Below, piece by piece: positions 19,533 through 43,156 of a DNA stretch of 64,000 nt. This stretch comes from a virus, in IMG/VR virus record IMGVR_UViG_3300030430_005376, positions 73,661-137,660 of that record. The stretch is one strand, 5' to 3'. The notes below the pieces were generated by a model, which worked only from the letters and a program-made list of their open reading frames with translations, had not been told where the DNA came from and did not search any database. Position 1 is the stretch's first letter. Every line of letters starts with the position of its first letter. Both the position numbers and the translations under genes were made by a program.

Positions 19533-20137
19533 GTCTTAGCTCCTAACACTTTAAATAGGTTTTTTCTGCCCAAATTACCTGTCCAGTGACAAGAAGAACA
19601 GCCAAAGACCAAATCAAAACTAGGTAAGTTATCTAGATTGAAATCATAGACTTCTTCTGTTTCAAACTTTAAACTCATGCCTTTAGGAAAATTTTCAGAA
19701 TCTTTGTTTCTAAACCAAGTGTACTTTATAATAGGGCTGTCTTGTAAAAAGTAAACCCAGTTACCCTCGTCTAACTCATCAATTGAATGCCATCCTTCAT
19801 AGTACACGTCGTGATGATGATCAAAATTAAAAATGCTAAAAGGCTCATCTTTCGGCAAGAAAGGTAATATTTGATGGTGATGTTCTGCTATTACAACAGG
19901 GGTGTCTATGCTGGTTTTTTCTCTAATAACACTTTTCAACAATTCTATTTTTGATTGATTTACTTCGGGTGTTGGCAGATTATTTTCTTTAAAAATCTTC
20001 ATCTGCTCTAGCAGAGATATTTTACTGCCTTCAACATAGTCTTCGTAGACGGAAATTGTAGGACTATACGCATAATCAATGTCGATAGAGAGTATATTCA
20101 CGAAACGCTTCTTTTTAATTTTAAAATTCTGATACAA
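19529..20137 (-). CDS. UPF0489-like, arginase/deacetylase-fold metalloprotein
   Basis: LSIDIDY, EHHHQI, NFDHHHD, EGNW; true start may be GTG at 20101. Confidence 0.55.
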   Translation of the reverse strand: MYQNFKIKKKRFVNILSIDIDYAYSPTISVYEDYVEGSKISLLEQMKIFKENNLPTPEVNQSKIELLKSVIREKTSIDTPVVIAEHHHQILPFLPKDEPFSIFNFDHHHDVYYEGWHSIDELDEGNWVYFLQDSPIIKYTWFRNKDSENFPKGMSLKFETEEVYDFNLDNLPSFDLVFGCSSCHWTGNLGRKNLFKVLGAKT

Positions 20138-20450
20138 CAGAATATTGAGTGTTGCCTATTTTTTTATACTCAAGTGATTTTGTTCGCTTTAAAGTGCGGT
20201 TAACCAAATTAGGATTTTCCTCAAGATGGCGCACTATCTTTCCTCTGGCGTTAGAATCTGCAGCAGTCCTTGCCAAGCTTGTCATTCCAGGTGCAATAGG
20301 TGCACTTCCTAAAGCCATAAGCTTACCATCTTTCTCAACAACTTCATCGGGATCATGATCCCAAAAACCTGCGAGGTCTGCATTTTGTTCGTCAATCTTG
20401 TCTATTGTTTCAACAATAATCTGCCTTAATTGCCTACGTGTTATTTTCAT
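20121..20450 (-). CDS. Hypothetical protein with MKITRRQLRQII-x-E leader
   Basis: ORF track; shared N-terminus. Confidence 0.75.
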   Translation of the reverse strand: MKITRRQLRQIIVETIDKIDEQNADLAGFWDHDPDEVVEKDGKLMALGSAPIAPGMTSLARTAADSNARGKIVRHLEENPNLVNRTLKRTKSLEYKKIGNTQYSVVSEF

Positions 20451-20457
20451 TGTAAAA

Positions 20458-20877
20458 TTACTCTCCTCTCAAAGCTGATTTTTTAATCATGACTTTGACC
20501 ATATCTCTGTTGTCTAGACGACTTGGATGTATCAGGAAATCAATGTCGTCGTCTTTTAAGTTGTGTCTTCGAGCAACTTGCTTAAAAATAGCGCTGAGAC
20601 CTGATATGCCTCCGAGTCGGTCCCGCACTCTAGAGTCCAGTGCCCCCTGCTTTACAAAAGTTAACACAACTAATCCTCTTCCGCCAAGAAGCTTATTAGA
20701 AGGAGGTGATCCTTTCCTATAGTTGAGCTTAGGAAGAGCAGCATCGATGGTCTTGTAAAGATCGTCTATAATAGGTTCTGCTCTTTTTTCTAATTCTTCA
20801 TAGTCTGCTACACCTGTCAATCGAGTAGGGAGTGCTTCGGAAATTATCTGCCTTAATTGTCTACGTGTGATCTTCAT
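20458..20877 (-). CDS. Hypothetical protein with MKITRRQLRQII-x-E leader
   Basis: ORF track; shared N-terminus. Confidence 0.75.
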   Translation of the reverse strand: MKITRRQLRQIISEALPTRLTGVADYEELEKRAEPIIDDLYKTIDAALPKLNYRKGSPPSNKLLGGRGLVVLTFVKQGALDSRVRDRLGGISGLSAIFKQVARRHNLKDDDIDFLIHPSRLDNRDMVKVMIKKSALRGE

Positions 20878-21191
20878 TTTATTTCTGGTCCAATATGCAT
20901 TCTAATTTGAGTTACAATACCGTTGAGTCTACCTCTAACTCTTTTGCTCATTTCTTCTCTTCTTAACATAGAATCAATATCCCGCGCAATCATTTCAAGT
21001 CGCATTCTGTCGTCAACTGGAGGCTTGCGAGGTCTATCTGATTTAAAAGCTGGATCATCCAATCCGAACTGGCCACCTGGTGGAATTGCTCCGGTGTCGC
21101 TCGACAGTGGCGCTTTGTATCCAGGTCCCGGGCCGTCTCCTGGAAAAGATTCTTCAATGATCTTTCTCAACTCTTCACGCGTGATTTTCAT
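20874..21191 (-). CDS. Hypothetical protein with MKITREELRKIIEE leader
   Basis: ORF track; 4-bp overlaps with neighbours. Confidence 0.75.
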   Translation of the reverse strand: MKITREELRKIIEESFPGDGPGPGYKAPLSSDTGAIPPGGQFGLDDPAFKSDRPRKPPVDDRMRLEMIARDIDSMLRREEMSKRVRGRLNGIVTQIRMHIGPEIK

Positions 21192-21421
21192 TTTTTACAT
21201 CCTTTAGGTAGTTGTGATTTAAGTTCTTTTTTGTAAACTTCTAGTTTTGGTTGTTCCCACTTGAGACGCGGACAGTACTCCTTGTGATCTTCTTTGTCTT
21301 GCAGAAAAAGTTCGAGCGCTTTAGCAGATCGCTCGAGGTCGTTGGCTTGTTGAGCAAAAGTGTATGTAGCTCCAAAAAGTGTGCCTGTTAAAACACACGT
21401 TACAAAAGTCACAGCCCTCAT
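21188..21421 (-). CDS. Small protein with signal peptide/TM segment
   Basis: Hydrophobic N-terminus ending in AQQA; ATGA overlaps. Confidence 0.65.
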   Translation of the reverse strand: MRAVTFVTCVLTGTLFGATYTFAQQANDLERSAKALELFLQDKEDHKEYCPRLKWEQPKLEVYKKELKSQLPKGCKK

Positions 21422-21687
21422 TCTGTCACCAGCCTTTCAATTCTACTCAGAATTTCTCTAACGTGTCCAAGATCGCTCTGAACTTTAATAAGAGTCTTTG
21501 TTGCTTCTTCTTGCTCTTCTACAGCTTCTTCTAATTCTGCAACGTGGCGCTCAAGATCACCTAAATCATTTCTAAGCTGAGCTACTTCTACGTTGACAGT
21601 CCACACCCAACCTGCAAGAGGCAAGACAAGTGCTGACATGAGAAGTGATACTGCCTTCCAAACATCGTCTTTAGTTATAGCTGCCAT
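21418..21687 (-). CDS. Single-TM coiled-coil protein (holin/XhlA-like architecture)
   Basis: TM AVSLLMSALVLPLAGWVW followed by heptad coiled coil. Confidence 0.55.
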   Translation of the reverse strand: MAAITKDDVWKAVSLLMSALVLPLAGWVWTVNVEVAQLRNDLGDLERHVAELEEAVEEQEEATKTLIKVQSDLGHVREILSRIERLVTE

Positions 21688-21688
21688 C

Positions 21689-21901
21689 TTATTCTCCTTT
21701 TAATGCTTTGCTTCTCTCAACAGCCCGAAGCTGTTTGAGAGCTTTTTTATAAGACATAGGTTTCTTAGAAAGTGCTTTTCGAGTCTTTCTACCCTTTTGT
21801 GGTTTCTTAGGGTAGACTTTGTAACCGCCCTTGACCTTTCTTATTTCTTCATCAACAATGTTTCTTATAAGTTCCCTTAAAAGGGCTGCTGGGACCTTCA
21901 C
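21689..21901 (-). CDS. Small highly basic protein with leader
   Basis: LLRELIRNIVDEE followed by a Lys/Arg-rich tail; GGAG RBS. Confidence 0.7.
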   Translation of the reverse strand: MKVPAALLRELIRNIVDEEIRKVKGGYKVYPKKPQKGRKTRKALSKKPMSYKKALKQLRAVERSKALKGE

Positions 21902-21972
21902 AGATGACTCCTGGTGAACTTAAAAACCTTTCTAATATAGATAGGCGGCAGAGATTTAAAGTACCTTGGAAA

Positions 21973-22002
21973 ACAAATCAAGCAGCCTAAAGGGCTGCTT
22001 GA
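21973..22002 (-). terminator. Intrinsic terminator
   Basis: Minus strand TCAAGCAGCC-CTTTA-GGCTGCTTGA followed by TTTGTTTT. Confidence 0.8.
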
Positions 22003-22029
22003 AGTTGCGAAATTTAAGTAATTCAGAGA

Positions 22030-22365
22030 TTACGTTAAAGATCTTCCTACAATCCACTTATCAGTTTGATAAACGCAGACGGCCATGTCACCGATGTTAG
22101 TTAAAGTAAGATCTCCTGTAGATGCGTTTGTACCCTTAAGTAGAACGTTATCTGCAGTTGTTGTTATAATAATTTTAACTGCGCCGTCTTCGGCTGTTGC
22201 TGGCAAAACTAATCCGCCGCCGGCGATGGCTGCTGTAGCGATAGTTAAAAATGTTGTAGCATCTAAGTTACCTGGGGCTGCAACTGAAGTAATGCTGTTG
22301 AGCTCGACACCCGCACCAGAGGCTTGAACCAGACCTTTGGCAGCTGTATAAGTTACTTTTGGCAT
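22030..22365 (-). CDS. Probable capsid decoration / small virion protein
   Basis: 111 aa Ala/Thr/Gly-rich beta-type sequence near MCP; AGGAGG RBS, own promoter motif and terminator. Confidence 0.5.
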   Translation of the reverse strand: MPKVTYTAAKGLVQASGAGVELNSITSVAAPGNLDATTFLTIATAAIAGGGLVLPATAEDGAVKIIITTTADNVLLKGTNASTGDLTLTNIGDMAVCVYQTDKWIVGRSLT

Positions 22366-22453
22366 AATATCCTCCTAAATTGTTCGCAAGATTCCGATAC
22401 GCTGGCGAGATCAGCTTATTATGCTTGTACCGGGCCTGCTTTAAATAGGCTTT

Positions 22454-22669
22454 CTATTTTAATTTTTCATTAATAGTTTGTGCCCAAGACCAACCTGGGT
22501 TTTTTGTCAACGCTTCTATAAGTACGTCAACTCTTGGATCTCCTCCTGATGCAGGCCTCTTTGCCAATGCTGCTTTCAGAGCAGCAACTTCTTTTCTGAG
22601 TGCTGCAACATCTCTTTCACATTTTGCGCAGCACTCCTCGGCGCTCGCTGCTTGACTTTTTCTTGGCAT
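22454..22669 (-). CDS. Small coiled-coil hypothetical protein
   Basis: CCAKC followed by heptads; GGAGG RBS. Confidence 0.7.
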   Translation of the reverse strand: MPRKSQAASAEECCAKCERDVAALRKEVAALKAALAKRPASGGDPRVDVLIEALTKNPGWSWAQTINEKLK

Positions 22670-22684
22670 TTTTTCCTCCGATAT

Positions 22685-22713
22685 TTGAAATGCTTCGTTA
22701 TAAGTATCATACT
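22685..22713 (+). promoter_or_regulatory. Sigma70-like promoter for the plus-strand gene
   Basis: TTGAAA-17 bp-CATACT. Confidence 0.55.
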
Positions 22714-22737
22714 AACCACTATTTTTCCGGAGTTAAA

Positions 22738-23067
22738 ATGATCATAAGAAACAGCAGAGTTCCCCAATGGCTTTCAATCGTGATAGATGTTTACGCAATA
22801 GCTTTGTGGCCTTTTATATTCATAAGAGACGAAGGAGATGTGACGACAGTTAACCATGAAAAAATCCACTTGCGTCAACAAGTGGAGTTATTAATCGTTG
22901 GATTTTATCTTCTGTATGCTTTTTATTGGCTTAGAAGTTATCTTAAGCAAGGTGACAAAGCCCAAGCTTACTACGACATACCTTTTGAAAAAGAAGCGTA
23001 CGCTTATGACAATGATCTAAAGTACCTTGAAAAGAGAAAAAACTACGCTTGGCTTAACTTCCTGTAG
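22738..23067 (+). CDS. Membrane-associated HExxH protein, 109 aa
   Basis: GGAG RBS before ATG 22738 (track start 22600 is probably too long); LWPFIF, NHEKIHLRQQ, PFEKEAY. Confidence 0.75.
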   Translation: MIIRNSRVPQWLSIVIDVYAIALWPFIFIRDEGDVTTVNHEKIHLRQQVELLIVGFYLLYAFYWLRSYLKQGDKAQAYYDIPFEKEAYAYDNDLKYLEKRKNYAWLNFL

Positions 23068-23482
23068 AGCCAAAACCACCAGTTCCGCGGTCTGATTCTG
23101 AAAGTTCTTCAACTTCTTCAAGTTCGATTTGAGGTCTCTCTACTATCATGATCTGCCCAATTTTATTACCAGATACGTAACTTGGTAAACTTTTCGCCTC
23201 TTCTAACTCAAGAAATTTTAGCATTATCTCGCCTCGATAATTACTGTCAATTACGCCCACGCTGTTTCTCAAGCTTAAATTTGTTTTGGACACTGAACTT
23301 CGAGGGAAGACTAATCCTACATGCCCAGCAGGTATCTCTATTGCGATACCTGTTCCGTACACGAAATTGCCTAAATCATCTATCTTTAACCAAGCTGCGT
23401 AAAGATCTAAACACGCATCACCCTCTAAAGAGTAGTGCGGTGTTTTTGCATTTGGGTGTAGCTTCTTAAATTTAACTTTCAT
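23054..23482 (-). CDS. dut: Trimeric dUTPase
   Basis: ACLDL, PRSS, GVIDSNYRGE, GQ, RGTGGFGSTG motifs. Confidence 0.95.
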   Translation of the reverse strand: MKVKFKKLHPNAKTPHYSLEGDACLDLYAAWLKIDDLGNFVYGTGIAIEIPAGHVGLVFPRSSVSKTNLSLRNSVGVIDSNYRGEIMLKFLELEEAKSLPSYVSGNKIGQIMIVERPQIELEEVEELSESDRGTGGFGSTGS

Positions 23483-23711
23483 TTCGACCCATTACAAAGT
23501 TGAACATACGGTCTGCTTCTTCGATAATCTGCTGAATTGAAACATTATCGTATTGTTTGTGTGTTTCCCACTTCATAGCTGCTTTGCCTAGAAGTATGTC
23601 CTTAGACAAGTTAAGAAGTTCCATTCTTAATGACTCTTCTGGTGTGAGAGAAGGTGGCCCAGGAACAACAACAACTTGACTTTCTTCATTTTCTATTTGA
23701 TCAATTAACAT
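23472..23711 (-). CDS. Small hypothetical protein, paralog of 23805..24008
   Basis: LRMELL...IIEEADRMFNFV; AGGAG RBS. Confidence 0.75.
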   Translation of the reverse strand: MLIDQIENEESQVVVVPGPPSLTPEESLRMELLNLSKDILLGKAAMKWETHKQYDNVSIQQIIEEADRMFNFVMGRNES

Positions 23712-23727
23712 TTAAACTCCTAAGATA

Positions 23728-23756
23728 ATAGTAACAAGATTTTGTGACAAATACAC
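23728..23756 (-). promoter_or_regulatory. Sigma70-like promoter
   Basis: GTGTAT-17 bp-TACTAT overlapping the terminator U-tract. Confidence 0.45.
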
Positions 23757-23783
23757 AAAAAAAAGGCACCTAAAAGGGTGCCT
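23756..23783 (-). terminator. Intrinsic terminator
   Basis: AGGCACC-CTTTTA-GGTGCCT followed by long T-run. Confidence 0.85.
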
Positions 23784-23804
23784 ACAAAAGAAAAGTAAAT
23801 TGTT

Positions 23805-24008
23805 CTACTTCTTTTGAACGAATGCATAAAGCTTTTCAGCTTCAGCAATAATATCCTCAGTTGTGAAAGGTGCCACTGGTTGACGTGTACCTTCTGGCTT
23901 TAGATGTTCATTTTCAAACTGACGTTGAACTCTTTCTGAGACAATTCCCATTGCCATACCGAGCAGATCTGTGCGGAGCTCGAAACCGTTTCTGTTTGCA
24001 TCACCCAT
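23805..24008 (-). CDS. Small hypothetical protein
   Basis: GFELRTDLL...DIIAEAEKLYAFV; AAGGAGA RBS. Confidence 0.8.
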   Translation of the reverse strand: MGDANRNGFELRTDLLGMAMGIVSERVQRQFENEHLKPEGTRQPVAPFTTEDIIAEAEKLYAFVQKK

Positions 24009-24058
24009 TTTATTCTCCTTTGTGTGTGTATGTGTGACGAAGCCTAAGCTTCAAAAAA

Positions 24059-24087
24059 ATTATATTAATCATTCTTAAGCTCGTAAA
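24059..24087 (-). promoter_or_regulatory. Sigma70-like promoter
   Basis: TTTACG-17 bp-TATAAT. Confidence 0.6.
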
Positions 24088-24116
24088 ACAAAAAAGGCAC
24101 CCCGAAGGGTGCCTTT
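24085..24116 (-). terminator. Intrinsic terminator after MCP with UUCG tetraloop
   Basis: AAAGGCACCC-TTCG-GGGTGCCTTT followed by TTTGTTTT. Confidence 0.9.
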
Positions 24117-24135
24117 ATAAGACCTAGAAGTTATC

Positions 24136-26073
24136 TCAGATAACGTCCATGTCGAGGCAGGTAACAGTACCGTAGAAGTCAGCGCGAACCATCTTCTTCC
24201 CGTAGCGGGTCATCACGCCCTTACGGGGTGTGAAGTCTTCGGGAGCGAAGATCGTCGGTGTGACGATGAGTGGTACGTAAGGAGCGTAGACGTAACCAGT
24301 CTCGAGGTAGGAACCTCCCTTGTAACCAACAAGAATCTTGTTGCGGGGGAAGTATGGGTCCTTGTAGACTGTGAAACGGTTGCTCAAGCTACCGATTGCT
24401 GCTGCACCGAGTGAGAACTCAGAACCGACCTGACCCTGACCATCGATCTTGATGGAGGGCTTGTAGAGGACAGAAGCTTCGAAGATTGTAGCAACTTCAG
24501 GTGAGCACACGATGAAGTTTGCTGAACCACGAAGTGTCTTTCTGTGGATCTCGTTTGCAACGTCGATGATGGTTTCAACGAGAGTCTCGTACCATTCGCG
24601 GACGGTACCAGTAAACTGAGGACCTGTTGCGAGTGAAGATGCGAGCTCAACGGATGCACCGCTTCTCTTGTTAACGAACTTACCGGGTGAACGTGACCAG
24701 AAGAAGTTCGCGCCACGAGCTTCAACGAGAAGGTCGTTGAGGATCTCACGGTCAATTTCAAGAGCGATCTGCTCAGAGAGGATCTGAGTGAGCTCGACCT
24801 CAGCGTCCATGCTGTGGTAAGCGTTCAGGTCCTGAGCGAGTTCTGGTGACCAACGAGCACGAAGCTTACGTGTGGTAGCTGTGACCGCGATGGACTCGAT
24901 CTTGATGTCAATCTCAGGGATGACAGGCTGTGGTGAAGACTCAAAGTTCGACTCAAAGGTAGGAATGGTGAGTGTTCCACCAGTGCCACCTTCTGCCTCA
25001 ACTCTATCAGCGACAGCGAACGAAGCTGTAAGGTTTGTCGCCGCGTTGTGAAGAGCGCTTTCGACACCCTGCATAACGAAGAGCACACCGGTGTCAAGGT
25101 TGCCTGCAGCAGTGCTGGCAAGTGGGTTTGGAGTGAACTTAACAGAGCCTGCTGCACCAGTCATGGTACCAAGCTGGTTGAGACGACGAACGTTAAGAAT
25201 ACCGCTACCACCCTGCACGTTTGATGCAGGAACTGAGTAGTCTGCAACTGCGCCATCATCTGTGGCAGAGAAGAGAGCGATTGACTTAACAGCAGTAGGA
25301 TCAAGTCTCTTGCCAGTGCCGCCAGTAAGAACAGAAGCTGAAACGATTAAGAACTGGTAGTCGAAGTCGCGATCAACGATGTGTTGTGTAACCTGTGGGT
25401 CGAACTGGATAAGCTTTCCGTCTGAACCACTAGTGGTAATTCTACCAGTAGAATCAACAACCTGCTGTGATCCACCACCATATGCACCGTTGTAAACAAC
25501 GAACTCTGCTGATGTACCTGTCAGTCTGACTCCTTCGTGAACGCGTGAGTAGGTAGTGCCAACGAGGTCGTACTGGCCACCTGTAGCATCAGAACCTGTG
25601 CGAACGGAAGAACCTGCTGGGTTGTTGTAAAGTGAGTCGCCCTTGTTGAAAGTAGCATCAGTACCTGCGAGGTCGCGGGAGGATCCTGACTCAAGAACGT
25701 CATCACCACCAACGTCTGAACCGTAGGTGTAGTCAAGGTAGAAGAGCAGACCGGAAGGAAGGCTCATGGGCTGAATTGAGACGAGCTCGTTTGCAACCAG
25801 ACCGCCGAAAACGCGACGAACGATTGGGAACGCGATGTTTGAGAAGCCGTCAATCTGACCGGCTGATCCGCCGCTGCCGAGAACGTTAGCTTCACGAAGA
25901 ACCTGGGCTGCCTGGTTCTCGAGAAGACGTGACATAGTCTCGCGACCTTGATCGCCGAGACCACGAAGTAGACCGGTACGGGTCCACTTCTCCATCAGTC
26001 TGTTACTTTCAGCACCAACGTGACGATCACGGATGCCTTCAGTTAACTGGTTTAAAGTAAATGAACGTGACAT
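24136..26073 (-). CDS. gp23: Major capsid protein (T4 gp23 family)
   Basis: FPIVRRVF, VSIQPMSLPSGLLFYLDY, RKLRARWSPELAQDL, EIDREIL, YAPYVPL, PRKGVMTRYG. Confidence 0.95.
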   Translation of the reverse strand: MSRSFTLNQLTEGIRDRHVGAESNRLMEKWTRTGLLRGLGDQGRETMSRLLENQAAQVLREANVLGSGGSAGQIDGFSNIAFPIVRRVFGGLVANELVSIQPMSLPSGLLFYLDYTYGSDVGGDDVLESGSSRDLAGTDATFNKGDSLYNNPAGSSVRTGSDATGGQYDLVGTTYSRVHEGVRLTGTSAEFVVYNGAYGGGSQQVVDSTGRITTSGSDGKLIQFDPQVTQHIVDRDFDYQFLIVSASVLTGGTGKRLDPTAVKSIALFSATDDGAVADYSVPASNVQGGSGILNVRRLNQLGTMTGAAGSVKFTPNPLASTAAGNLDTGVLFVMQGVESALHNAATNLTASFAVADRVEAEGGTGGTLTIPTFESNFESSPQPVIPEIDIKIESIAVTATTRKLRARWSPELAQDLNAYHSMDAEVELTQILSEQIALEIDREILNDLLVEARGANFFWSRSPGKFVNKRSGASVELASSLATGPQFTGTVREWYETLVETIIDVANEIHRKTLRGSANFIVCSPEVATIFEASVLYKPSIKIDGQGQVGSEFSLGAAAIGSLSNRFTVYKDPYFPRNKILVGYKGGSYLETGYVYAPYVPLIVTPTIFAPEDFTPRKGVMTRYGKKMVRADFYGTVTCLDMDVI

Positions 26074-26120: not shown

Positions 26121-27554
26121 TTATTTAAGACCTGCAAGTCTCTGCCAGCGGTCGAGCTCTGGAGCACCGTTTGCTCCTTTCTTCGGCGCTGAAGATGTTG
26201 TGGGTCTGGATGATGAACCGCGGGTTCTTGACTCAGCGAGAGTCTTTTTGTTACCGCGAGTAAATGTCTCTGTGAGCGACTTGTACAATGACTTAGCCTC
26301 TCTAAGACTGTTAGCTTCGTCAAGAGCCTTGATAACAGATTTCTTTTCAGATTCGTTAAGGTTCTTATTTTGAAGAAGCTTATTGACGTAAAGCAACTTG
26401 GCATTAAAGAGATTGAGATCTTCCAACTGTTCACGAAGAGTATCAACAGCACTTCTGTATTTCTTCAGTTTCTCATCAAGCGCGCGATTCTTACGGCGCT
26501 CAGTGCGGAATGCCTCCGCAAGTTTGTTCATGTCGGGTGGGTTAGTAAAGGGATCTTGCCCTTCTGCACCACCACCGAAAGATTTGCTGGCGTCGCCCTT
26601 GCCGCCGCCTTTACCACCGAAAGCACCATCGACACCTTGGTGAGGACCTTTGCCTCCAAAGTGGTGATCCATCTTGCCTTCGCGGACCATTTTTCTAATA
26701 CGAAGAATTTCTTCAGCGAGCATGGTTTCATCGATTTCTACCATCTCTTCCATGCCTTCTTCTTGGTACATTTCACCGAGTGCTTGGAAGTCAACTTCTT
26801 CTTCTTCACCAGCTTCGCCTTCTGCTTCTTCACCAGCTTCTTCGGCGTCGTCAGCTTCTTCGTCTTCAAGCTCGACTTCTTCTTCGTCTTCATCATCGTC
26901 GTCAAGCATACCACGAAGCTCTTCAGGGATCTGGTCTTCTTCGATGTCATCTCCTAAGTCAAGAACTAATCTAAGCTCTTGAAGCATCTCTTCGATGCTA
27001 GGCTCCTGCTGCTCGTCGGCGCTTTCTCCATCTTGTTGTAAAGTTTCTGAAAGCTCGGCTTCAACAGCTTCTCTAAGAGCTTTGAGATCTACTTCGTAGT
27101 ATTTGTCATCCATCACTGAATTCTCCTTTAAATTCGTATCTTTATTACTTATGTTATCAGCAGACAAAGTTCTTTTTCTGCTATTAATTTTGTTTGCTAA
27201 ATTTTTTAATTCTGCTTTTTGATCTTCGTCAAGCTGCTGAAAAGCATCTCGAGTAGACTCAGATATTGCTACCTTAGAAACATCTGACACATCAGATGAC
27301 ACGTCAATACCTAACAGCGTAGATAATTTTCTAAGTGAGGTTTCATCTAACGTAATTTCTTCATCTTCAGAAGAAACGTCTTCGTTAATTTCTTCTTCAA
27401 CTGAATCATCTTTGCTTTCAAGAAGCTCAGATTCAATAAAATCTCTAATTTTTGGTGTAACTGCTTCGAGAATCGCTTTTTTTGCATTTTCTTCAGCAAC
27501 TTCTCTCAGTTTTTTTGCATCGGCTATTGCTTCTTCAAAAACTTTGTTTGACAT
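26121..27554 (-). CDS. Prohead scaffold/core protein (gp22-like)
   Basis: Acidic, coiled-coil; LNLFNAKLLYVNKLL; directly upstream of MCP. Confidence 0.75.
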   Translation of the reverse strand: MSNKVFEEAIADAKKLREVAEENAKKAILEAVTPKIRDFIESELLESKDDSVEEEINEDVSSEDEEITLDETSLRKLSTLLGIDVSSDVSDVSKVAISESTRDAFQQLDEDQKAELKNLANKINSRKRTLSADNISNKDTNLKENSVMDDKYYEVDLKALREAVEAELSETLQQDGESADEQQEPSIEEMLQELRLVLDLGDDIEEDQIPEELRGMLDDDDEDEEEVELEDEEADDAEEAGEEAEGEAGEEEEVDFQALGEMYQEEGMEEMVEIDETMLAEEILRIRKMVREGKMDHHFGGKGPHQGVDGAFGGKGGGKGDASKSFGGGAEGQDPFTNPPDMNKLAEAFRTERRKNRALDEKLKKYRSAVDTLREQLEDLNLFNAKLLYVNKLLQNKNLNESEKKSVIKALDEANSLREAKSLYKSLTETFTRGNKKTLAESRTRGSSSRPTTSSAPKKGANGAPELDRWQRLAGLK

Positions 27555-28270: not shown

Positions 28271-28828
28271 TTATCCAGCTGAGCCTAAGTATGATCTTCC
28301 TGAAATTAGACCTGCTACTGTGTCCTGAGATGCTACCTCAGGTGAAGTTTCGTGTGGTGAAGCTTGTCCGCCCAAACCTGATCCGAATTCGCTCTGCTGG
28401 GCAGGGTCTGGTGTGACTCCTGTAAATGCAGGTTGGTCATTAGCTGATACTGAGCCCGGACCAGGTGAAGTCAAAGGTGGAATGTAGGGAGTTGTTGGCG
28501 CCCCTTGACCTGCACCAAACTCTTTTTCATCTATTGTCTTGTCGTTGCTTCCAATATCAGGTGCGTCTACAAAATCGACATTAAAACCATCTAACATTCT
28601 ATTGCCTGTACCGCTATCAACAGCGCCGCCGTATGCTTCAAATGCTGCAGTGACGTCGCCCGACTGCACATTTTGAGACCAGACTTCTCTAATAGCGTCA
28701 TCTGTCATGTCGCCAGCGTGTATAGGAGAAGCTGCATATGCTGATCTTAAATTCTCATTGAATCTTTTGCCAGGGCCTCCCTCGGTCACGACGTCTGGTG
28801 TAACTAAAATATCTCCTTTTCCTGACAT
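28271..28828 (-). CDS. Gly/Pro-rich hypothetical protein in head module
   Basis: ORF track; GAGGAG RBS. Confidence 0.7.
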   Translation of the reverse strand: MSGKGDILVTPDVVTEGGPGKRFNENLRSAYAASPIHAGDMTDDAIREVWSQNVQSGDVTAAFEAYGGAVDSGTGNRMLDGFNVDFVDAPDIGSNDKTIDEKEFGAGQGAPTTPYIPPLTSPGPGSVSANDQPAFTGVTPDPAQQSEFGSGLGGQASPHETSPEVASQDTVAGLISGRSYLGSAG

Positions 28829-29058
28829 TATTGCTCCTCATTCTTTTTTTGGATTAATTTAATTCTTTCAAAAAGAAATTTTTGTTGTTTCTTTAACTGG
28901 AGAAGTGCCTTTAGTTCTTTTCTAACTTCGTAAAACCGCCTAATGTCTTTAGAGTTTTTAGCTTTTTGGACCCTATCTTTTTGGTCAGCTATTTTTTGAC
29001 GTTCTTCTTCTATTATTTTTTTTAACAAATCCTTTGTAAGTTTAGTAGGTCTAGACAT
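28828..29058 (-). CDS. Small basic protein with LLKKIIEEE leader
   Basis: ORF track; GGAG RBS; promoter motif upstream. Confidence 0.7.
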   Translation of the reverse strand: MSRPTKLTKDLLKKIIEEERQKIADQKDRVQKAKNSKDIRRFYEVRKELKALLQLKKQQKFLFERIKLIQKKNEEQ

Positions 29059-29108: not shown

Positions 29109-29648
29109 TTATCTATTTATTTTTGGAGCGAATGCCATATCTGCCCAGTTTCTTGCTGAGTCTCCAAATAGTTCCATAGGGTCTGACGCTTCTACAATTC
29201 TAGCAGCTTCATCTGCAGGTGTCGAAGGCACAGCAGTGCCTCTTCTACCTTCAGCTCCTGCTTGAGCTTTTAAAGTTGAAGCAGCTGTGTCTGCAAAAAT
29301 CTCACTCATAATCGGATCTTTAGTTACACTCGATATTAATTGATTTGCTCTGTTGTCTTGCTGAGGCTGTGTTCTATACACGTCTTCGTTGCTATTTTGA
29401 CCATAGCTTACTTGATCTAAGTAACTTCCTCGATTTTGTCGAGCAGCAGGTGGACTTTCGTTTGTTTTGCCCATTCTTGGGTCAAGTCTTTGTCTGCCTA
29501 TAACTCTACCTCGGCTTTCAACTGCTTCTTTTAGACTTCTCTTTTTTTCAATCGAGCTGCCCGGGCTCTGTATTAAACCTTCTGCCAAAATTTCAACTAA
29601 ACATTCCTTAACAATTGATTTAAGTACTTTTTTATTTACTTTGCTCAT
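29109..29648 (-). CDS. Hypothetical protein with VLKSIVKECLVEILAE leader
   Basis: Start reassigned to MSKVNKK at 29648, inside the protease 3' end. Confidence 0.7.
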   Translation of the reverse strand: MSKVNKKVLKSIVKECLVEILAEGLIQSPGSSIEKKRSLKEAVESRGRVIGRQRLDPRMGKTNESPPAARQNRGSYLDQVSYGQNSNEDVYRTQPQQDNRANQLISSVTKDPIMSEIFADTAASTLKAQAGAEGRRGTAVPSTPADEAARIVEASDPMELFGDSARNWADMAFAPKINR

Positions 29649-30255
29649 CTTTATCCCATGTAAGAATCTCATTAAAGATTCTATCAATCCTGTCGGTCCT
29701 GTTAAAAAAATTATTTAACTCTCTCGGTCTTATAGTTTTGCCCTCTTGAAGTCCCATAAAAGCACCAGGAGTTGATGGTTCGCTAACCATGTCAAAACAA
29801 ATTAATTGAAAATCATCTTGAACAACTTGTGTGTTACCTTGAGACGAAGTTGAACCAACACCCCTAGAGCTAATTCCTAAAGTTACACCGCTCTCGATGA
29901 GTGATTGAATAATCTTACCGCTAGGTGTATCTAAAACTTCAATTGTCCCATAAACATCGTCACCTTGCATGTAAGCTTCTCTAACAATGTGAGATGCATT
30001 CTTTAGTTCAATTACAGAAGAATCTGGGTGATCACACTCTCCTAGCGCTCTGTTTTCTCTTATCAATTTTTGATAGTTTTCAACTTCTCTTTGAAGAATT
30101 GATCTCGGGTAAACTCTTCCATTTTGATTTAGAGTGTTAGCTCTTTGAATTATGCCTTTAAGCATAATTTTTCCGTATTTTTCTCTATTTTCTTTGATTA
30201 TTTCTTTATCACAGGTGATGGGCAACCACTCTCTAAGAACTTTAAGCTCAGACAT
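29632..30255 (-). CDS. gp21: Prohead protease (T4 gp21 family)
   Basis: NQNGRVY, ALGECDHP, SHIV, GISSRGVGS, DMVSEPSTPGAF; start reassigned to MSELKVLREW. Confidence 0.92.
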   Translation of the reverse strand: MSELKVLREWLPITCDKEIIKENREKYGKIMLKGIIQRANTLNQNGRVYPRSILQREVENYQKLIRENRALGECDHPDSSVIELKNASHIVREAYMQGDDVYGTIEVLDTPSGKIIQSLIESGVTLGISSRGVGSTSSQGNTQVVQDDFQLICFDMVSEPSTPGAFMGLQEGKTIRPRELNNFFNRTDRIDRIFNEILTWDKDEQSK

Positions 30256-31111: not shown

Positions 31112-33078
31112 TTTTCCTCCTCTGATGAATTAATCTCAGAGATAACTCCTGTATAACTTTTAGGTTTTCCATAGACATTATCAAGCCTAGAGAGTGTTGA
31201 TTTAATACTGTTAGTCATCTTAGTATTTTGAATAATTTTGTTATCCAAATACTCATCTATATTTATATCTTCAAACTTAAGGTTTCCTGCAGATTTTAAA
31301 TTATCCATCTCTCGAGGAATACCTGTTACGTCATTTTGTCTTCGAGAGCCTGCGTCTCTTCTCAGAGAAGTAAAATCTTCAGCAAAATTAGCGTCTGATT
31401 TTCTCTGACGCTTTCTCCTTTTTTCTTCATACTCGTGTCTAAGCTCTTCTCTCTTTTCGTCGTCTGTTAGTTCATCTTTCTCGTCATCTTCAGAGAGGAT
31501 AGAAGTTATGCTATCAATTTTGTTTTTGACCCGAATCGGAACATTTACATCTTCAACTGAGTCAGATTCCGAGAGACCTGCGTCTCCTTCCGGAGGTGTT
31601 ATACCTAAGTCTATAGACTGTTCAATCTCTGCGCCTCCGCCACCCGGGAGGGGATCAGAAGGTCCTTCAGCTTGCGTAATCTGAGTTGACTCAATTTCAA
31701 GTTCAGAAATTTTGTCAAGTTTCTGTCCTTTCTTAATTAATCTAATCGCATCATCTGTGAGCCTGAGAATGTTTTTCTGAACCCAACTTTTATCAACAAG
31801 CCCTGGTGTTTGCAGTGCAGCCCCAGCTGTTTCAAATTTTGATCTAAAAAGCTCTAATTTTTGTTGTTGAGCAATTGTTGAAGGGTTAGACAAAGACAAT
31901 GTGAAATCAAGCAAATCAGTGTCAGTAAATCCGTGACAGTATAAGTGAATAATTGCTATTTTGTTCATCTCTGCGATAACAGTTCTCTGAATTCTTGAAA
32001 TAGTTCTTGAGAATCTTATATCTTCCATAGAGAGAGTTGCCTTAGCACCAAGACCTTCATCATAACCTAAGTACGCTTTTGGTATTTTGAGGGCTGCAAA
32101 AAGTTTTTTCTGTATGTATTCAACATCGTTAGTTTCGCCTGCAACTGTGCCACCCGCAAGTGTAACAATATCTGTGCCTGACTCAGAACCTCTAACTGGA
32201 ATAAAATAATCTTCATCGACAGACAGCGGATTGTATCTTAAATCTACCTTACCTGTGTTTTGGTCCGTAATTGATGCCCTCTTCAATGAAGACTGTGCAC
32301 GCTCCATGTATGCAGGAATTTCTTCAGGTGGCACATTACCTACATCGATCTTGAAAACTCTTCTTTCTGGCGCTCTAACAATTCTGTAAACAAGCATCGC
32401 GTCTTCTAATAAGATTAACTGGCGCCAAATTCTTCTTGCAGGTTCTAAAACAGAAGACCCATATGGGATAAAGGCATCGTTACCTAAAAGACGCATGTGT
32501 GAAATCTGCCAATTTTCTAAAACTTGATTACCTTGTGTCACCCATCTGAAGCGTACTGCCATCGGGTCCTTTGGATCAAAACCTTCTTCTCTTTCAACTT
32601 CAGAAATAGGAAGAGGATAGGCGTTTATGACACCAAGTTCTGGACTTACATCGTTAAACAGAAAGTGATCTCCATACTTGCACAAATTTCTGACCCAACT
32701 AGTCATGTTAAATTCTACATTTAGTGTGTCATAAAATAAGTCATCTAGTAATTTTTTAATCTTCACATTATCTGAGTGAATATGAAGAACTCTCCCATTC
32801 TCATCTGCAGAAGCAGTTTCTTCGGCGTATATATCGAGAGCACTACCAACCTCAGGAGTGTACTCCATTTCTGAGAAATCCGAATATCTCGCCATTCTAT
32901 CATAAGTTCCATAAGCCGACATAGCGTTGCTGTAGACTTTGCTCTGATTCTTTCTAAACATTTCAAATGCTGATGAAGTATACTTGTCATCTGGATTTAT
33001 AATGTTTCTTTTGACAACAGGCCCAGAACGAAAAAGCCTAGTAAGCCGCTGAAATATGTTTGATCTACTCTCTGCCAT
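31108..33078 (-). CDS. gp20: Portal protein (T4 gp20 family)
   Basis: LEDAMLVYRIVRAPERRVFKIDVGN, EDYFIPVRG, YIQKKLFAALKIP. Confidence 0.95.
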   Translation of the reverse strand: MAESRSNIFQRLTRLFRSGPVVKRNIINPDDKYTSSAFEMFRKNQSKVYSNAMSAYGTYDRMARYSDFSEMEYTPEVGSALDIYAEETASADENGRVLHIHSDNVKIKKLLDDLFYDTLNVEFNMTSWVRNLCKYGDHFLFNDVSPELGVINAYPLPISEVEREEGFDPKDPMAVRFRWVTQGNQVLENWQISHMRLLGNDAFIPYGSSVLEPARRIWRQLILLEDAMLVYRIVRAPERRVFKIDVGNVPPEEIPAYMERAQSSLKRASITDQNTGKVDLRYNPLSVDEDYFIPVRGSESGTDIVTLAGGTVAGETNDVEYIQKKLFAALKIPKAYLGYDEGLGAKATLSMEDIRFSRTISRIQRTVIAEMNKIAIIHLYCHGFTDTDLLDFTLSLSNPSTIAQQQKLELFRSKFETAGAALQTPGLVDKSWVQKNILRLTDDAIRLIKKGQKLDKISELEIESTQITQAEGPSDPLPGGGGAEIEQSIDLGITPPEGDAGLSESDSVEDVNVPIRVKNKIDSITSILSEDDEKDELTDDEKREELRHEYEEKRRKRQRKSDANFAEDFTSLRRDAGSRRQNDVTGIPREMDNLKSAGNLKFEDINIDEYLDNKIIQNTKMTNSIKSTLSRLDNVYGKPKSYTGVISEINSSEEEK

Positions 33079-33087: not shown

Positions 33088-34713
33088 CTACTTTATTACC
33101 CACATGTAATCTTGAGGTATTATACTTCGATTTTTTGTTTTATTTAGGTCTTGCTTCACGTTACTGCCTACACTAGAGTTCTTCCCGCTATAAACTCCTG
33201 TAGGAGAAAAAACCTGATCAGGTGTATCGTTGTAATTTCTTTGATTTTTTGATATTGCGTTTAGCATTGCTTCATTTAGTCCAGAATTTGATTTTGCGTA
33301 CTCTGAAGCGCCGTCGTACAACCACGACCCTATTGCTAAACTCATAACTAGGTCGTCATTGAAACCTGATCTTGCTTGCGCTCGACCTGTATTCCAAGTA
33401 AAGACTTTTAATTCTTCATAGAATCTTGAAGAATAAGACATAAGTGTTCTGTTTCTCAGAACTTCTTCCAGTTTAGCAAGAATTGTAGCACGAGACTTAC
33501 CAGAAGTTGTAAACCCGCCGACGTCGGCAGAGGCTGGTGGGACGTAATCACCTAAATACGCTTGTTTCTTTCTTCTATAGTATATTTTTGGATACTGTAG
33601 TTCTTGCAACTTTAGTATAGTTGCGTAACCATAGCTGTTGTTCTCTGGACAAACAAGTGCTTTGTTGTATTTCAATCCAAATTCATTTATAAGCTCAGCA
33701 AAAGTATCGGGTCTAATCTTACCTTTGTATTCAGCTACAATTTCACTTTTTGTCGTATCTATGATATGGAAAGTTGAGTAATCCTTTGAGTCACCTCTCG
33801 ATACATCTGCAGATAAGATATACTCGTGTGAACTCATTGGGTATTTCCATATCCAGACATTTCTATCAAGCCCAGCTCTTTCTACAGGTTTTTCAACGCA
33901 ACTTCGAAGCCATTCTAGTGTGTTATTATCAAGAAAAGTTTCGCCGCTCGTAGCGAAATCGCACAAGTATTCTTGAGCAATCTGTCGCTTGTTCATATTT
34001 CGAGTTGTCTTCTCAAACCAGTCGTCGTCTCTCTCCGGATGAACATTCCAGGGTAGGTTTATTGCGTTAAATTCATTCAATCCTGCTTCTGCGTCGACAT
34101 ACAATTTATGATACTGGCCTCCGACACCGTTGGGGGTTGACAAAATTATAACTCTACCGCCAGTAGAAATAGTCGGATATATACCAGTCCATATGGTGTC
34201 AAAGTTTCTAACAAAAGCAGCCTCATCAACAATTAGCAGAGAAAGTGCTTCAGATCTACCTGCGTCTTCTGATGTTGGTACGGCTTTTATTTCTGATCCG
34301 TGGCTAAATCTAATTTTTTGCTTATTGTTTTCAACTATCTCTGGTAACAACAGCCACTTTGGAAGTGCTCTTATCATAGTCTTTACTTTTGTGATAAAGT
34401 TTTGTGCAACTGTCAGTTTAGTTGCAATGATAAGAATGTTCTTCTCTTTTTGAAAGATAGCCATCCAAACAGCGTATGCAGCTACCAAAGTTGATAAGCC
34501 TAACTGTCTAGACTTTAATATAATATTAAATCTGTGTTCTAGAAATTCTTCGACACAATCATCCTGAAAAGGATAAGTGTCAAAAGAAATAAGCCCTCTT
34601 ACAGGATGTTGTATTTTCAAGTAATTCTTAAAGAAATAGTTAGGATCTTTGCCGCATTTGATTATTTCTTTTACTTGGAGCTGTTTGTTGTATTTCGCCA
34701 TAGCAAAATACAT
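33088..34713 (-). CDS. gp17: Terminase large subunit (T4 gp17 family)
   Basis: KSRQLGLST Walker A, LIVDEAAF Walker B, STPNG, ADVSRG, DDLVMS. Confidence 0.95.
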   Translation of the reverse strand: MYFAMAKYNKQLQVKEIIKCGKDPNYFFKNYLKIQHPVRGLISFDTYPFQDDCVEEFLEHRFNIILKSRQLGLSTLVAAYAVWMAIFQKEKNILIIATKLTVAQNFITKVKTMIRALPKWLLLPEIVENNKQKIRFSHGSEIKAVPTSEDAGRSEALSLLIVDEAAFVRNFDTIWTGIYPTISTGGRVIILSTPNGVGGQYHKLYVDAEAGLNEFNAINLPWNVHPERDDDWFEKTTRNMNKRQIAQEYLCDFATSGETFLDNNTLEWLRSCVEKPVERAGLDRNVWIWKYPMSSHEYILSADVSRGDSKDYSTFHIIDTTKSEIVAEYKGKIRPDTFAELINEFGLKYNKALVCPENNSYGYATILKLQELQYPKIYYRRKKQAYLGDYVPPASADVGGFTTSGKSRATILAKLEEVLRNRTLMSYSSRFYEELKVFTWNTGRAQARSGFNDDLVMSLAIGSWLYDGASEYAKSNSGLNEAMLNAISKNQRNYNDTPDQVFSPTGVYSGKNSSVGSNVKQDLNKTKNRSIIPQDYMWVIK

Positions 34714-40781: not shown

Positions 40782-40802
40782 GTGTTTGTTTTCCTCTTTA
40801 CT

Positions 40803-40831: not shown

Positions 40832-40836
40832 TGCAC

Positions 40837-41277
40837 TCATAATTTTTCAATAACTTCAATAGGCTTAATTTCAATTCTGCCTACCGAGGACAAGAGTGTC
40901 ACAACACCAGAGTTCTTAGCCTGTTCCCTTGTCGCACACTCATTTGGGACCCACATTGACACAATCAAACCCATCTCTTCTGATCCTTTGTAATTAAAGC
41001 TAACCGTGTCGCCTGCCTCAAAAGAAAATATTGCTTGACTTTTTTGTGTACTAGAAAAATCTTCTTTTATATTTTTGAGGTTTTGTCTAGCTATTTTTTT
41101 CAACTCTTTTGGTGTATGTCCAGTTTCACTTATTTTTGACTCTTTGCCAGCTATTTTTGCTTTTCTTATTTCTTGAGCTCTGTTGGGAATTCCGTCAGGC
41201 TCAGACAAAGCTCGTTCTTCCTTGTAGCTCTTTCTTATTTTTCTTAAATCAGAAGCTGATATTTTCCTTTTTGCCAT
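40837..41277 (-). CDS. Basic hypothetical protein
   Basis: ORF track; GAGGT RBS. Confidence 0.7.
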   Translation of the reverse strand: MAKRKISASDLRKIRKSYKEERALSEPDGIPNRAQEIRKAKIAGKESKISETGHTPKELKKIARQNLKNIKEDFSSTQKSQAIFSFEAGDTVSFNYKGSEEMGLIVSMWVPNECATREQAKNSGVVTLLSSVGRIEIKPIEVIEKL

Positions 41278-41294
41278 AAATTACCTCTTTTATT

Positions 41295-41323
41295 ATTATA
41301 GCAAGAAGATTTTTTAATTACAC
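41295..41323 (-). promoter_or_regulatory. Sigma70-like promoter with extended -10
   Basis: GTGTAA-17 bp-TATAAT, with TGn before the -10. Confidence 0.6.
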
Positions 41324-41324
41324 A

Positions 41325-42575
41325 CTACAAAATTAGCTTTTCTATCTTGTTTTCATGATAAAAATTTTCTAACATATAATCTAATTCATCCATGATTATT
41401 TGATTTGCTATGTCAAAGTTAAAATTTGTTTCTTTTAAGAAGACAAGATTAGTTATCTTTTTATTGCCTTTTTCAAAAGGCGCTAACCAACTCATAGTTG
41501 CTAATTTAAGAAAAGGCTTGTCACGAATATCGCAGACTTTCGGTGCATACTCAACTATTTTGTTGGCAGGCGCATAAGATACACCTGACAATGTTGATCT
41601 GTGATCGCTTCTTATTTTTGAGTGCGACTCAAGAATCTTATTCAATCTAGCGAAGTCTGAGAAAGATTCTTGCTTGACAAAGAATATGTGTGTCATTCCT
41701 TCTAGAAGTCTTTTGATTTCAACTTCTTTTGTGCAATATTCTATCGGGTATCCTTCAATGAATGACTCGCTAGCACTTTTACATTCTGCTATCGAAATAC
41801 CTGTACATTCTTTCAAGAATGATGCCATGTCTTCAGTAAAAAAGTTTATTGCTTGTGTCTTCTTGAAAGATGACCTAGATTTAAGTGCTCGCTTTCTTAA
41901 AAATTTAACAAAAATCTTTTGATTTTGCCTACTAATGCAGTTTTCATTTAAGCTGCTCTCTTTCAGCAAAAAATTTGCTGCTTGTTCCCCTAAAAATCTT
42001 CCGGCTGATATATCTGACGGGAAGTGCACACCGTTTTCTATTCTTGATTGCGCAATCATTTCTGCTATTGTTTGAAGCTGCATAGCTTTTTCAGGAAAAA
42101 GGTCAGAAAGATAGTTGCTTATCAAATAAGCAAAAGCTGTGTGACCACTTGGATAAGATGGTGAACCGGCTTCTGCAGTTTCAATATCTTCTCCCCTGTC
42201 TTTAAAATACTCAAAAGGGCGAGGTCTATCATATTTGAATTTCTGTCTAAGCATAATGCTGTCAAACTCTTTTAGCATGTCATCAATACTTGACCAGTCA
42301 AATTCTTCCTTTCCTAAAAATTTTTTAAATATATCTTCAGCGTCTCGGTCAGATAGTTCTAAAAATTTTTCTGAAAGAGAAGGATCTTTTACACAGCGTC
42401 TGACTTCGTCTAAGTCTTCTTCAAACTTTTCTGTGCCAAGTTCAGGGTAAGGCATCTCAGGAATTGTTGCCTCAAAACCTTCAAAGATTTTACATTTTCT
42501 AGTCAGCCTTTTTTTGTATTTTTTAGGTACACTAGTAATGTCGACATCTTCAAAAAGACGTTGAAGCGAAATCAT
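41325..42575 (-). CDS. PAP2/class A acid phosphatase with C-terminal degenerate Fic-like region
   Basis: KFKYDRPRP, PSYPSGH, SRIENGVHFPSD; C-terminal LAPFEKGNKK. Confidence 0.8.
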   Translation of the reverse strand: MISLQRLFEDVDITSVPKKYKKRLTRKCKIFEGFEATIPEMPYPELGTEKFEEDLDEVRRCVKDPSLSEKFLELSDRDAEDIFKKFLGKEEFDWSSIDDMLKEFDSIMLRQKFKYDRPRPFEYFKDRGEDIETAEAGSPSYPSGHTAFAYLISNYLSDLFPEKAMQLQTIAEMIAQSRIENGVHFPSDISAGRFLGEQAANFLLKESSLNENCISRQNQKIFVKFLRKRALKSRSSFKKTQAINFFTEDMASFLKECTGISIAECKSASESFIEGYPIEYCTKEVEIKRLLEGMTHIFFVKQESFSDFARLNKILESHSKIRSDHRSTLSGVSYAPANKIVEYAPKVCDIRDKPFLKLATMSWLAPFEKGNKKITNLVFLKETNFNFDIANQIIMDELDYMLENFYHENKIEKLIL

Positions 42576-42589
42576 AATTTCCTCTTAGT

Positions 42590-43156
42590 TTATTCTTGCT
42601 CGTGCATGTAGTCTAATTTGTGATAAACTTCACCAATATCATCTGCAGCTTGTGAAATGTGACTTCTCATCCAGTCGTCAAGGTCATGATCTTCTGGTAT
42701 CATGTGCTGAAGTTTTTGAGCGTACTGGGCGATTTTGTGAAGTTGAGACTTTGCCATATATGCACCTGACTTGTGACCTTCTTCTTCGTCTTCTAAAGAA
42801 AATGTGCCGACTATAGATTCGGCGCTAGGATACATTAGCATAGGTTCGTAGTCTGAATAACTTGAAGGGGGTGAATCTCCACATCCACAGCCGCCTTCCA
42901 TCATCAGAGGTCCGCCGCAAGAAGAGCAAGTTAATTTCATTACATGCTTGCTCACGCTAGGAGGTAGGGGATAATCTTCGTCATCACTGGGGCAGTCACA
43001 AGGGTCATGCTGGTGAACTGAGCATGGAGTAGATCGAGCACTAACGCTTCGGTCTCGCTTAAAACTATCGGGCACGTCTGCTGGGTTTACGAGCAAATCT
43101 TCTTTTACTCTTGATATTTCTTGTTGGATAATTTTTCTTAAGCTTTCTCTTTTCAT
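42590..43156 (-). CDS. Hypothetical protein with leader, Cys cluster and helical C-terminal domain
   Basis: MKRESLRKIIQQEI...VKE; CSSCGG...CGCG; MAKSQLHKIAQYA. Confidence 0.7.
   Translation of the reverse strand: MKRESLRKIIQQEISRVKEDLLVNPADVPDSFKRDRSVSARSTPCSVHQHDPCDCPSDDEDYPLPPSVSKHVMKLTCSSCGGPLMMEGGCGCGDSPPSSYSDYEPMLMYPSAESIVGTFSLEDEEEGHKSGAYMAKSQLHKIAQYAQKLQHMIPEDHDLDDWMRSHISQAADDIGEVYHKLDYMHEQE

Follow-up and report, generated by a model that had tools for sequence, protein, structure and literature searches.

A recurrent N-terminal leader on unrelated proteins of uncultured T4-like large phages, a candidate capsid-targeting propeptide

The DNA analyzed here, hereafter the window, is the final 64 kb of IMG/VR virus record IMGVR_UViG_3300030430_005376, a 137,660-bp virus contig (G000) with an estimated completeness of 53% (CheckV), the source of which is an uncultured marine T4-like large phage. 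We found that proteins of this phage which are otherwise unrelated to each other start with the same short leader peptide, and that this leader pattern is real and larger than first noted. The original prediction had named seven leader proteins in the window; this count was too low, as there are 11 canonical copies on the contig, dozens in related phages, and at least 120 IMG/VR stretches with the pattern. The leader most likely acts like the capsid-targeting sequence (CTS) of T4 internal proteins, that is, as a capsid-targeting propeptide, and by analogy with T4 we hold this reading with moderate confidence. Gene calls are our own open reading frame (ORF) calls, and G000 and several of its relatives are incomplete; window coordinates are prefixed with w, and the contig coordinate is w + 73,660.

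A leader profile of 16 residues, run on the six-frame translation of the entire 137.7-kb contig, gave 11 matches of 22–31 bits (E-values of 1e-8 to 1e-5), separated by a 12-bit gap from the next-best match on the contig at 9.7 bits, and a second profile run with a search tool gave the same result. All 11 strong matches sit exactly at an ATG or GTG heading an ORF on the coding strand, three of them inside the window (w20450, w20877, and w21191) and eight outside it (contig positions 3985, 5051, 5341, 5662, 7785, 8458, 21107, and 38738). Shine-Dalgarno-like GGAG/AGGAG sequences lie upstream of most starts examined, including both GTG starts. The leader was also recovered de novo by clustering the N-terminal 13-mers of all ORF starts with no prior motif: its 10 members made it the largest cluster of G000, and pairs numbered 46 as against 3 in a reversed control. 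The procedure also recovered the T4 CTS cluster (IPII, IPIII, and also gp61.1), which served as positive control. T4 gp61.1 (L143 18966-19130, minus strand; 54 aa) starts with M-K-T-F-K-E-F-I-K-E and clusters with the CTS of IPII and IPIII, and may by its sequence be an unrecognized CTS-bearing protein.

The leader consensus is M-K-I-T-R-R-Q-L-R-(K/Q)-(L/I)-I-x-E-(A/S)-hydrophobic, with a length of 14–16 residues. Over 52 leaders from three genomes, information content is 2.5–4.3 bits at most of positions 1–14 (lower at positions 6, 10, and 13) and drops to 1.3 bits for residues 15 and 16 and to ~0.3 bits beyond them, and residues 1–11 are conserved as much as the end that carries the cleavage motif. 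Among the 11 copies on the contig, ~50% of the residue pairs that are identical differ in their codons, six different codons encode Leu8, and the flanks (40 nt upstream and the codons downstream) share 28% DNA identity, which equals background. Since identical residues are written with different codons and the flanking DNA is unrelated, selection acts on the peptide and not on the DNA. The amphipathic moment of the leader is 0.45, compared to 0.26 for other N-termini and 0.44 for the T4 CTS, and the peptide is predicted to be a basic amphipathic helix. An (I/L/V)-x-E motif ends at residues 12–20 in 52/52 leaders, with I, L, or V at position 12 in 49/52 and Glu at position 14 in 42/52. In all 10 leaders without Glu14, (I/L/V)-x-E is present but displaced, by -1, +1, or a few residues; the share of other N-termini with a site in this range is 16%. 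A literature search with six variants of the first eight leader residues found no paper containing any of them.

What follows the leader differs from protein to protein. The cargo parts are mutually unrelated (all BLASTP E-values > 1), and nearly every cargo is specific to one genome; no Pfam family was found for 45 of the 47 cargos scanned, and no PHROG or Pfam family for any leader protein of the window. For the 52 profile matches, the median cargo length is 197 aa (range 49–764), and only three cargos have a membrane-like segment. In one cargo a LysM domain is simply appended to the leader (L001:5051-5341, minus strand). This gene adjoins that of a lysin-like 296-aa protein (peptidoglycan-binding by reading; L001:5659-6549, minus strand) in a second leader island of the contig, which suggests that one tagged cargo may act on the cell wall. 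Another cargo, in the related genome G003 (L100:18792-19460, minus strand), is a 5'(3')-deoxyribonucleotidase (PHROG 2643) with the leader directly before its D-M-D-G-V motif; the homolog in Flavobacterium phage immuto begins at the same point but has a different 20-residue N-terminal extension, ending in L-L-E-E, without a canonical leader. The density of (I/L/V)-x-E in cargo is 1.26 per 100 residues versus 1.30 expected from composition, and thus gives no evidence of cargo avoiding the motif. For the cargo at contig 3985, all that two of three orthologs in relatives retain immediately ahead of the conserved domain is a short N-terminal stretch that ends in L-S-E.

The seven N-termini named in the original prediction are confirmed on the minus strand at w20450, w20877, w21191, w21901, w29058, w29648, and w43156. 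The first three are canonical and highly significant, while the other four are not significant alone: w29058 and w43156 score low against the profile (Table 1), and w21901 and w29648 are not among the listed matches. Orthologs nonetheless lend support to three of these four weak cases (w43156, w21901, and w29648). Seven orthologs of gene G (start at w43156) in relatives begin with the leader, six of them scoring 16.6–22.8 bits. The family of gene D (start at w21901) includes a canonical leader in G001 (13.3 bits) and a related variant in L028/L030, these clearer leaders ending in (I/L)-x-E. In gene E (start at w29058), the leader-like N-terminus L-x-K-x-I-I-x-E-E is kept only in the six closest loci. 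The shorter forms that had also been proposed, MSLIEE at w16826 and MISLQRLFE at w42575, are not supported beyond chance. The protein at w16826 has no ortholog, and that at w42575 has a PAP2 match and an N-terminus that is only loosely conserved (LFD in one relative), and is not a leader protein.

Within the phage genomes, leader genes recur at a hypervariable slot between the conserved capsid and neck genes. This slot holds the D-C-B-A run headed by gene D in G000, two leader genes in G011, seven in G001, and eight in G003, all with non-homologous cargos, and the cargo genes are thus polymorphic at this place between close relatives. In G011, which is the closest relative of G000 (structural proteins 74–92% identical), the two leader genes directly abut the neck gene and a six-gene block (w15504-20137) is missing; its absence from the closest relative makes this block look like a recent insertion. 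The cargos of genes A and B are ORFans unrelated to other cargos, and for that of gene A no Pfam or PHROG family and no homolog in relatives was found. Intergenic 8-mers suggest that a T-A-T-A-T-T-T-A-like element precedes several structural genes and gene D, but this is too weak a signal to classify genes as late and was not used.

Table 1 Features of the window in window coordinates.
Feature	Coordinates	Strand	Description
Hypervariable slot	15443-24135	minus	Between capsid and neck genes; holds genes D, C, B, and A and a six-gene cassette
Gene A	20121-20450	minus	109 aa; codons 1-16 (w20403-20450) encode a canonical leader, which matches the profile from the start codon on (29.9 bits)
Gene B	20458-20877	minus	139 aa; canonical leader; 31.3 bits, 35 bits in the second search
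Gene C	20874-21191	minus	105 aa; canonical leader; 27.6 bits; Gly/Pro-rich cargo
Gene D	21689-21901	minus	70 aa; GTG start; degenerate leader and very basic small protein
Major capsid protein, gp23 family	24136-26073	minus	645 aa; Pfam Gp23 263 bits
Scaffold candidate, gp22 position	26121-27554	minus	477 aa; acidic coiled coil with long Asp/Glu tracts
Gene E	28828-29058	minus	76 aa; basic coiled coil with leader-like N-terminus, inside the head module; 8.5 bits alone
Protein F	29109-29648	minus	179 aa; ATG at 29648; directly after the protease; small scaffold-like head protein
Prohead protease, T4 gp21 family Peptidase_S77	29632-30282	minus	Pfam PF03420 96 bits; PHROG 207
Portal, T4-type gp20 family	31108-33078	minus	Pfam Portal_T4 245 bits
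Large terminase	33088-34713	-	Head module
Gene G	42590-43156	minus	188 aa; Cys-rich; shortened leader; 5.1 bits

The head module of the window (Table 1) is of the T4 type. IMG/VR holds 489 contig stretches that encode a relative of the G000 protease, and the best 80 of these are 66–91% identical. The S77 protease is the predicted enzyme removing the leaders. The likely start of its ORF is the second Met (w30255), from which orthologs share M-x-x-L-x-(V/L)-L-(R/T)-E with the site at residue 9. As had been predicted for the protease (VLRE), it carries this (V/L)-L-(R/T)-E near its N-terminus, and of the 22 relatives listed 21 retain the motif; comparable to L-I-E-9 in T4 gp21 (PMC9026906), it may be where the protease processes itself. 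The site VLRE-A proposed for the major capsid protein is conserved as well, with (V/L)-L-(R/K)-E kept in 66/66 aligned orthologs and the motif also conserved in immuto and Microcystis phage Mel-JY01. Maturation is predicted at V-L-R-E61/A, near w25891, and residue 65 aligns with residue 14 of mature T4 gp23*, which places the predicted site close to the point aligning with the mature T4 gp23 N-terminus. The capsid-protein and scaffold sites share with the leader only (I/L/V)-x-E.

The N-terminal helix of protein F, whose gene immediately follows that of the protease, resembles the leader and contains three (I/L/V)-x-E sites in succession; F is present in 77/80 related loci, and this N-terminus is its most conserved part. 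The scaffold candidate, a 477-aa acidic protein conserved in 71 loci with no Pfam or PHROG match, is by its composition and position a candidate binding partner of the basic leader. At their C-termini the two proteins carry like motifs, W-x-x-(L/M)-A-F in 71/71 orthologs of F and R-W-x-x-L-A-G in 69/71 orthologs of the scaffold, which suggests that both use one binding site on the shell or portal. Since F combines a leader-like N-terminus with the scaffold's C-terminal motif, a scaffold-like head protein uses the N-terminal design of the leader. A search of F against the Protein Atlas returned only viral hypothetical clusters. The module also contains a conserved 287-aa protein between the portal and protease genes and two conserved proteins after F and E.

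The leader recurs in other uncultured large phages. Leader ORFs number 24 in G001 (202 kb, 70% complete), including an island of 13 tandem genes, 32–35 in G003 (237 kb, 77% complete), 12 in G005 (141 kb, 54% complete), 8 in G016 (190 kb, 100% complete), 19 in G020 (289 kb, 96% complete), and 11 in the published 484-kb genome LR756508.1 (uncultured, GenBank). Among cultured phages, the 160-kb immuto has four leader ORFs of a shorter form, one of them between the portal and protease genes; this form reads M-K-K-S-Q-L-R-Q-I-I-K-E, followed by A, in immuto35A_190, and the other three bearers include immuto35A_198 of the head module. No leader was found in T4, cyanophage Syn9, RM378, or Mel-JY01; no virion proteome paper for immuto was found. 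The deposited phages nearest to G000 by portal are Mel-JY01 (42%), immuto (37%), and RM378 (31%), all of them distant, and a published group of aquatic T4-like jumbo phages, the moraphages, has a core gene list similar to that of the present clade (PMC12619734). A loose DNA pattern of the leader hit at least 120 IMG/VR stretches versus a rough chance expectation of a few, and in the 80 loci that were fetched 107 of 110 complete ORFs have a length of at least 50 aa. Positions left free by the pattern are still biased (Gln7 in 79/122, Lys13 in 80/122, and Glu15 in 98/122), which indicates a true family, and the commonest form has Lys in place of Arg. A 24-residue leader query gave no match to GenBank phages, in a search too insensitive to be informative.

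The closest known parallel is found in T4, where Mullaney and Black reportedly described the CTS of internal proteins in 1996. The T4 CTS is an N-terminal propeptide of 10–19 residues on IPI, IPII, and IPIII and also on the Alt propeptide; it ends in (L/I)-x-E, is removed by gp21, and suffices to package foreign proteins (PMC9026906, PMC5694885). The leader resembles it in being a short propeptide-like sequence at the extreme N-terminus of otherwise unrelated proteins with an (L/I)-x-E-type end and a nearly equal amphipathic moment, and the present phage encodes homologs of gp20, gp21, and gp23. It differs in that there is no homology (the leader profile has no match in T4 or Syn9, and the T4 cluster starts with M-K-T-Y-Q-E-F), in being strongly basic and both longer (14–16 aa) and more basic than the CTS, and in tagging 11 to ~35 proteins per genome versus 3–5 in T4. 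Synonymous differences have built up between leader copies, whereas the DNA that encodes the IPII leader is the same as that for IPIII, and function is demonstrated for T4 while here it is inferred from sequence. Internal-protein genes of T-even phages are poorly conserved, with one basic protein bearing a CTS-like N-terminus taking the place of another between close relatives (PMC9026906, section 3.1, its reference 69), and the non-homologous leader genes likewise replace one another at the same place between conserved flanks. The slot here differs in lying inside the late head-neck block and holding up to 8 genes, with further islands such as that of 13 tandem genes in G001.

Two other systems invite comparison. 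Encapsulin cargo-loading peptides resemble the proposed function of the leader in that a short, portable tag directs arbitrary cargo into an HK97-fold shell, but they are usually C-terminal and undergo no proteolytic removal. The present system involves no encapsulin; a further likeness, to scaffold C-terminal coat-binding helices, is the C-terminal motif that F shares with the scaffold. In the giant phages phiKZ, 201phi2-1, and SPN3US, many head-internal proteins are processed after Glu by a gp21-related protease, and the SPN3US paralogs gp53 and gp54 have an identical 15-residue N-terminus that was called CTS-like by the authors (PMC5694885, PMC7411985, PMC10052503). Processing of many head-internal proteins and a cut after Glu, both predicted here, are common to the two. 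The propeptides of giant phages are mostly >100 residues long with a small P3 residue (A/S/G-x-E; PMC5694885) and are not common to unrelated proteins, in contrast to one short leader of 14–16 residues with I, L, or V at P3 that is reused on dozens of proteins. The distinct, modular, T4-CTS-like signal of the original prediction is borne out in its start position, peptide-level conservation, unrelated cargos, (I/L/V)-x-E end, T4-type head genes, the leader genes in the hypervariable slot, and the N-terminus of F, and is not supported for the short forms; the profile scan of contig and relatives that had been suggested as a check is the one given above. We regard the leader as CTS-like in every sequence-testable feature yet not homologous to the T4 CTS, and as a lineage-wide family in uncultured large phages.

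Four features of context tie the leader to the head, namely its protease-type end, protein F, the hypervariable slot, and co-occurrence with the S77 protease. If the leader is a capsid-targeting propeptide, it would form a basic amphipathic helix that lets any protein bearing it co-assemble with the acidic scaffold or core during prohead formation on the portal. The S77 prohead protease would then cut after the Glu of (I/L/V)-x-E. Released within the shell as the pieces of leader and scaffold leave, the cargo would stay in the DNA-filled head and probably be delivered to the next host cell with the DNA. Scaffold binding, cleavage, packaging, ejection, and an effector role of the tagged proteins are all steps that we infer.

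Several observations weigh against this reading. The leader and the T4 CTS have no sequence relationship, so that their analogy consists in common properties, and the clade has no cultured member for which a virion proteome exists. The count of (I/L/V)-x-E ends among the 52 leaders is partly circular because Glu14 belongs to the profile, and only the shifted-site cases are independent. Some leader genes are found among replication and metabolism genes and not among head genes (contig 38738, beside a DnaE-like gene, and contig 21107), one cargo is an enzyme of nucleotide metabolism, and many cargos are acidic, unlike the basic internal proteins of T4. Up to 35 tagged proteins, of sizes to ~815 aa, occur in one genome, which is far above any documented CTS repertoire. 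Protein F has no match among GenBank phages. Co-occurrence with the protease, by contrast, speaks for the reading, as Peptidase_S77 was found in 10 of the 13 long contigs reached through the leader DNA pattern alone, although the weight of this figure depends on the background S77 rate in large IMG/VR contigs. All three leader-pattern contigs that are at least 90% complete have S77, the three without it being 45–68% complete, and a first look at five leader-pattern contigs found no S77 in records only 18–37% complete.

Some tagged genes lie outside structural regions and one cargo is a metabolic enzyme, both of which would also fit a leader that acts as an address or docking helix for something besides the prohead. 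It could be an N-terminal degron for Clp-type proteolysis, a handle for the chaperonin/Hsp20/J-protein set of the phage, or an amphipathic helix that binds membranes, and (I/L/V)-x-E would then belong to the recognition instead of marking a cut. We consider this unlikely. In its favor, the leader is basic and amphipathic and the phage has putative genes, read from ORF sequences, for a ClpP-like protein (contig 55549-56151), a GroEL-like chaperonin (contig 15752-17350), and an Hsp20-like protein (contig 4037-4465). An address of this kind leaves unexplained why shifted variants always restore (I/L/V)-x-E, why a conserved scaffold-like head protein beside the protease has a like N-terminal design, why leader genes sit in the capsid-neck slot of four genomes, and why the leader co-occurs with the S77 protease, and the scarcity of membrane-like segments among the 52 cargos speaks against a membrane helix. 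It is also improbable that the tag, instead of loading capsids, addresses proteins to a system of its own for sorting or timing them during infection (for example phage proteostasis or another assembly), marking 10–35 fast-evolving proteins per genome and only mimicking the T4 CTS; if true, this would be a new kind of phage protein-sorting code across a lineage of uncultured large phages.

The protease-type end that argues for capsid targeting would serve equally well for a propeptide that is cleaved by the protease and whose main role is not targeting, masking or inactivating its protein until head maturation or marking substrates while other parts of the protein direct packaging. The CTS residues needed for targeting in T4 are not those needed for processing (PMC9026906), and the short L-S-E N-termini in two of the three orthologs of the contig 3985 cargo are also in line with a propeptide of this kind. 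Conservation of residues 1–11 as strict as that of the cleavage end would be needless for a mere cut site, and the unrelated cargos share no other element able to direct packaging, which leaves such a propeptide only a small chance. Recognition of the tag by a co-encoded modifying enzyme of the radical-SAM/SPASM type is very improbable, as Radical_SAM (PF04055) was not found in G000, G001, G003, G005, or G011, records of 28–77% completeness, in a search that was positive in 14/14 control genomes. We dismiss coincidence, a repeat or recombination cassette in the DNA, and a single diverged paralog family as sources of the pattern, even though duplication can yield shared N-termini as in the DNA-identical leaders of T4 IPII and IPIII, since these explanations are refuted by E-values down to 1e-8, matches that all lie at start codons, variable synonymous codons beside unrelated flanks, cargos of 49–764 aa of which two have unrelated domains (LysM and deoxyribonucleotidase), and 3 pairs in the reversed control against the 46 observed.

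Additional features of the contig were recorded. The minus strand holds 146 of the 149 called genes. The second leader island spans contig 3.4–8.5 kb; upstream of its leader gene at 7785, contig 7786-8224 (L001) contains a 10-N run, an assembly gap, followed by a 9-nt unit (C-T-G-C-A-A-T-A-T) in four tandem copies just before the ribosome-binding site of this GTG-start gene. Short direct repeats, 3–4 copies of 13–14-nt units rich in A-A-A-C-A-T-T, are present in the intergenic regions at contig 15002-15081 (L001) and 63129-63224 (L004), where they precede a sigma-factor-like gene and a 263-aa gene, respectively, and possibly have a regulatory role. G+C content is 51% in the capsid gene compared to ~38% for the rest of the window, and no alignment to T4 gp23 was obtained for ~150 aa of the capsid protein between its N-terminal region and the gp23 core. 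At w5747-12328, neighboring genes encode two large sheath-like paralogs of 1145 and 1038 aa that have N-termini in common, and both are kept in G011.

If the leader functions as the T4 CTS does, sequence would suffice to list the head-packed proteins for a lineage of uncultured marine and aquatic large phages that is represented by at least 120 IMG/VR stretches and a 484-kb genome. Such a list would comprise 10–35 proteins per genome, almost all of no known function and differing even between close relatives. Among the few T4 proteins of this kind are one that inhibits a host restriction system and an enzyme that reprograms the host RNA polymerase, and these examples make the tagged set a natural place to look for new counter-defense and host-takeover proteins. 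A leader that functions in this way would also mean that the CTS principle extends beyond the T-even phages, as a general design of T4-type heads that has diversified independently, and it would add a second short and portable peptide with which foreign proteins could be loaded into phage capsids.

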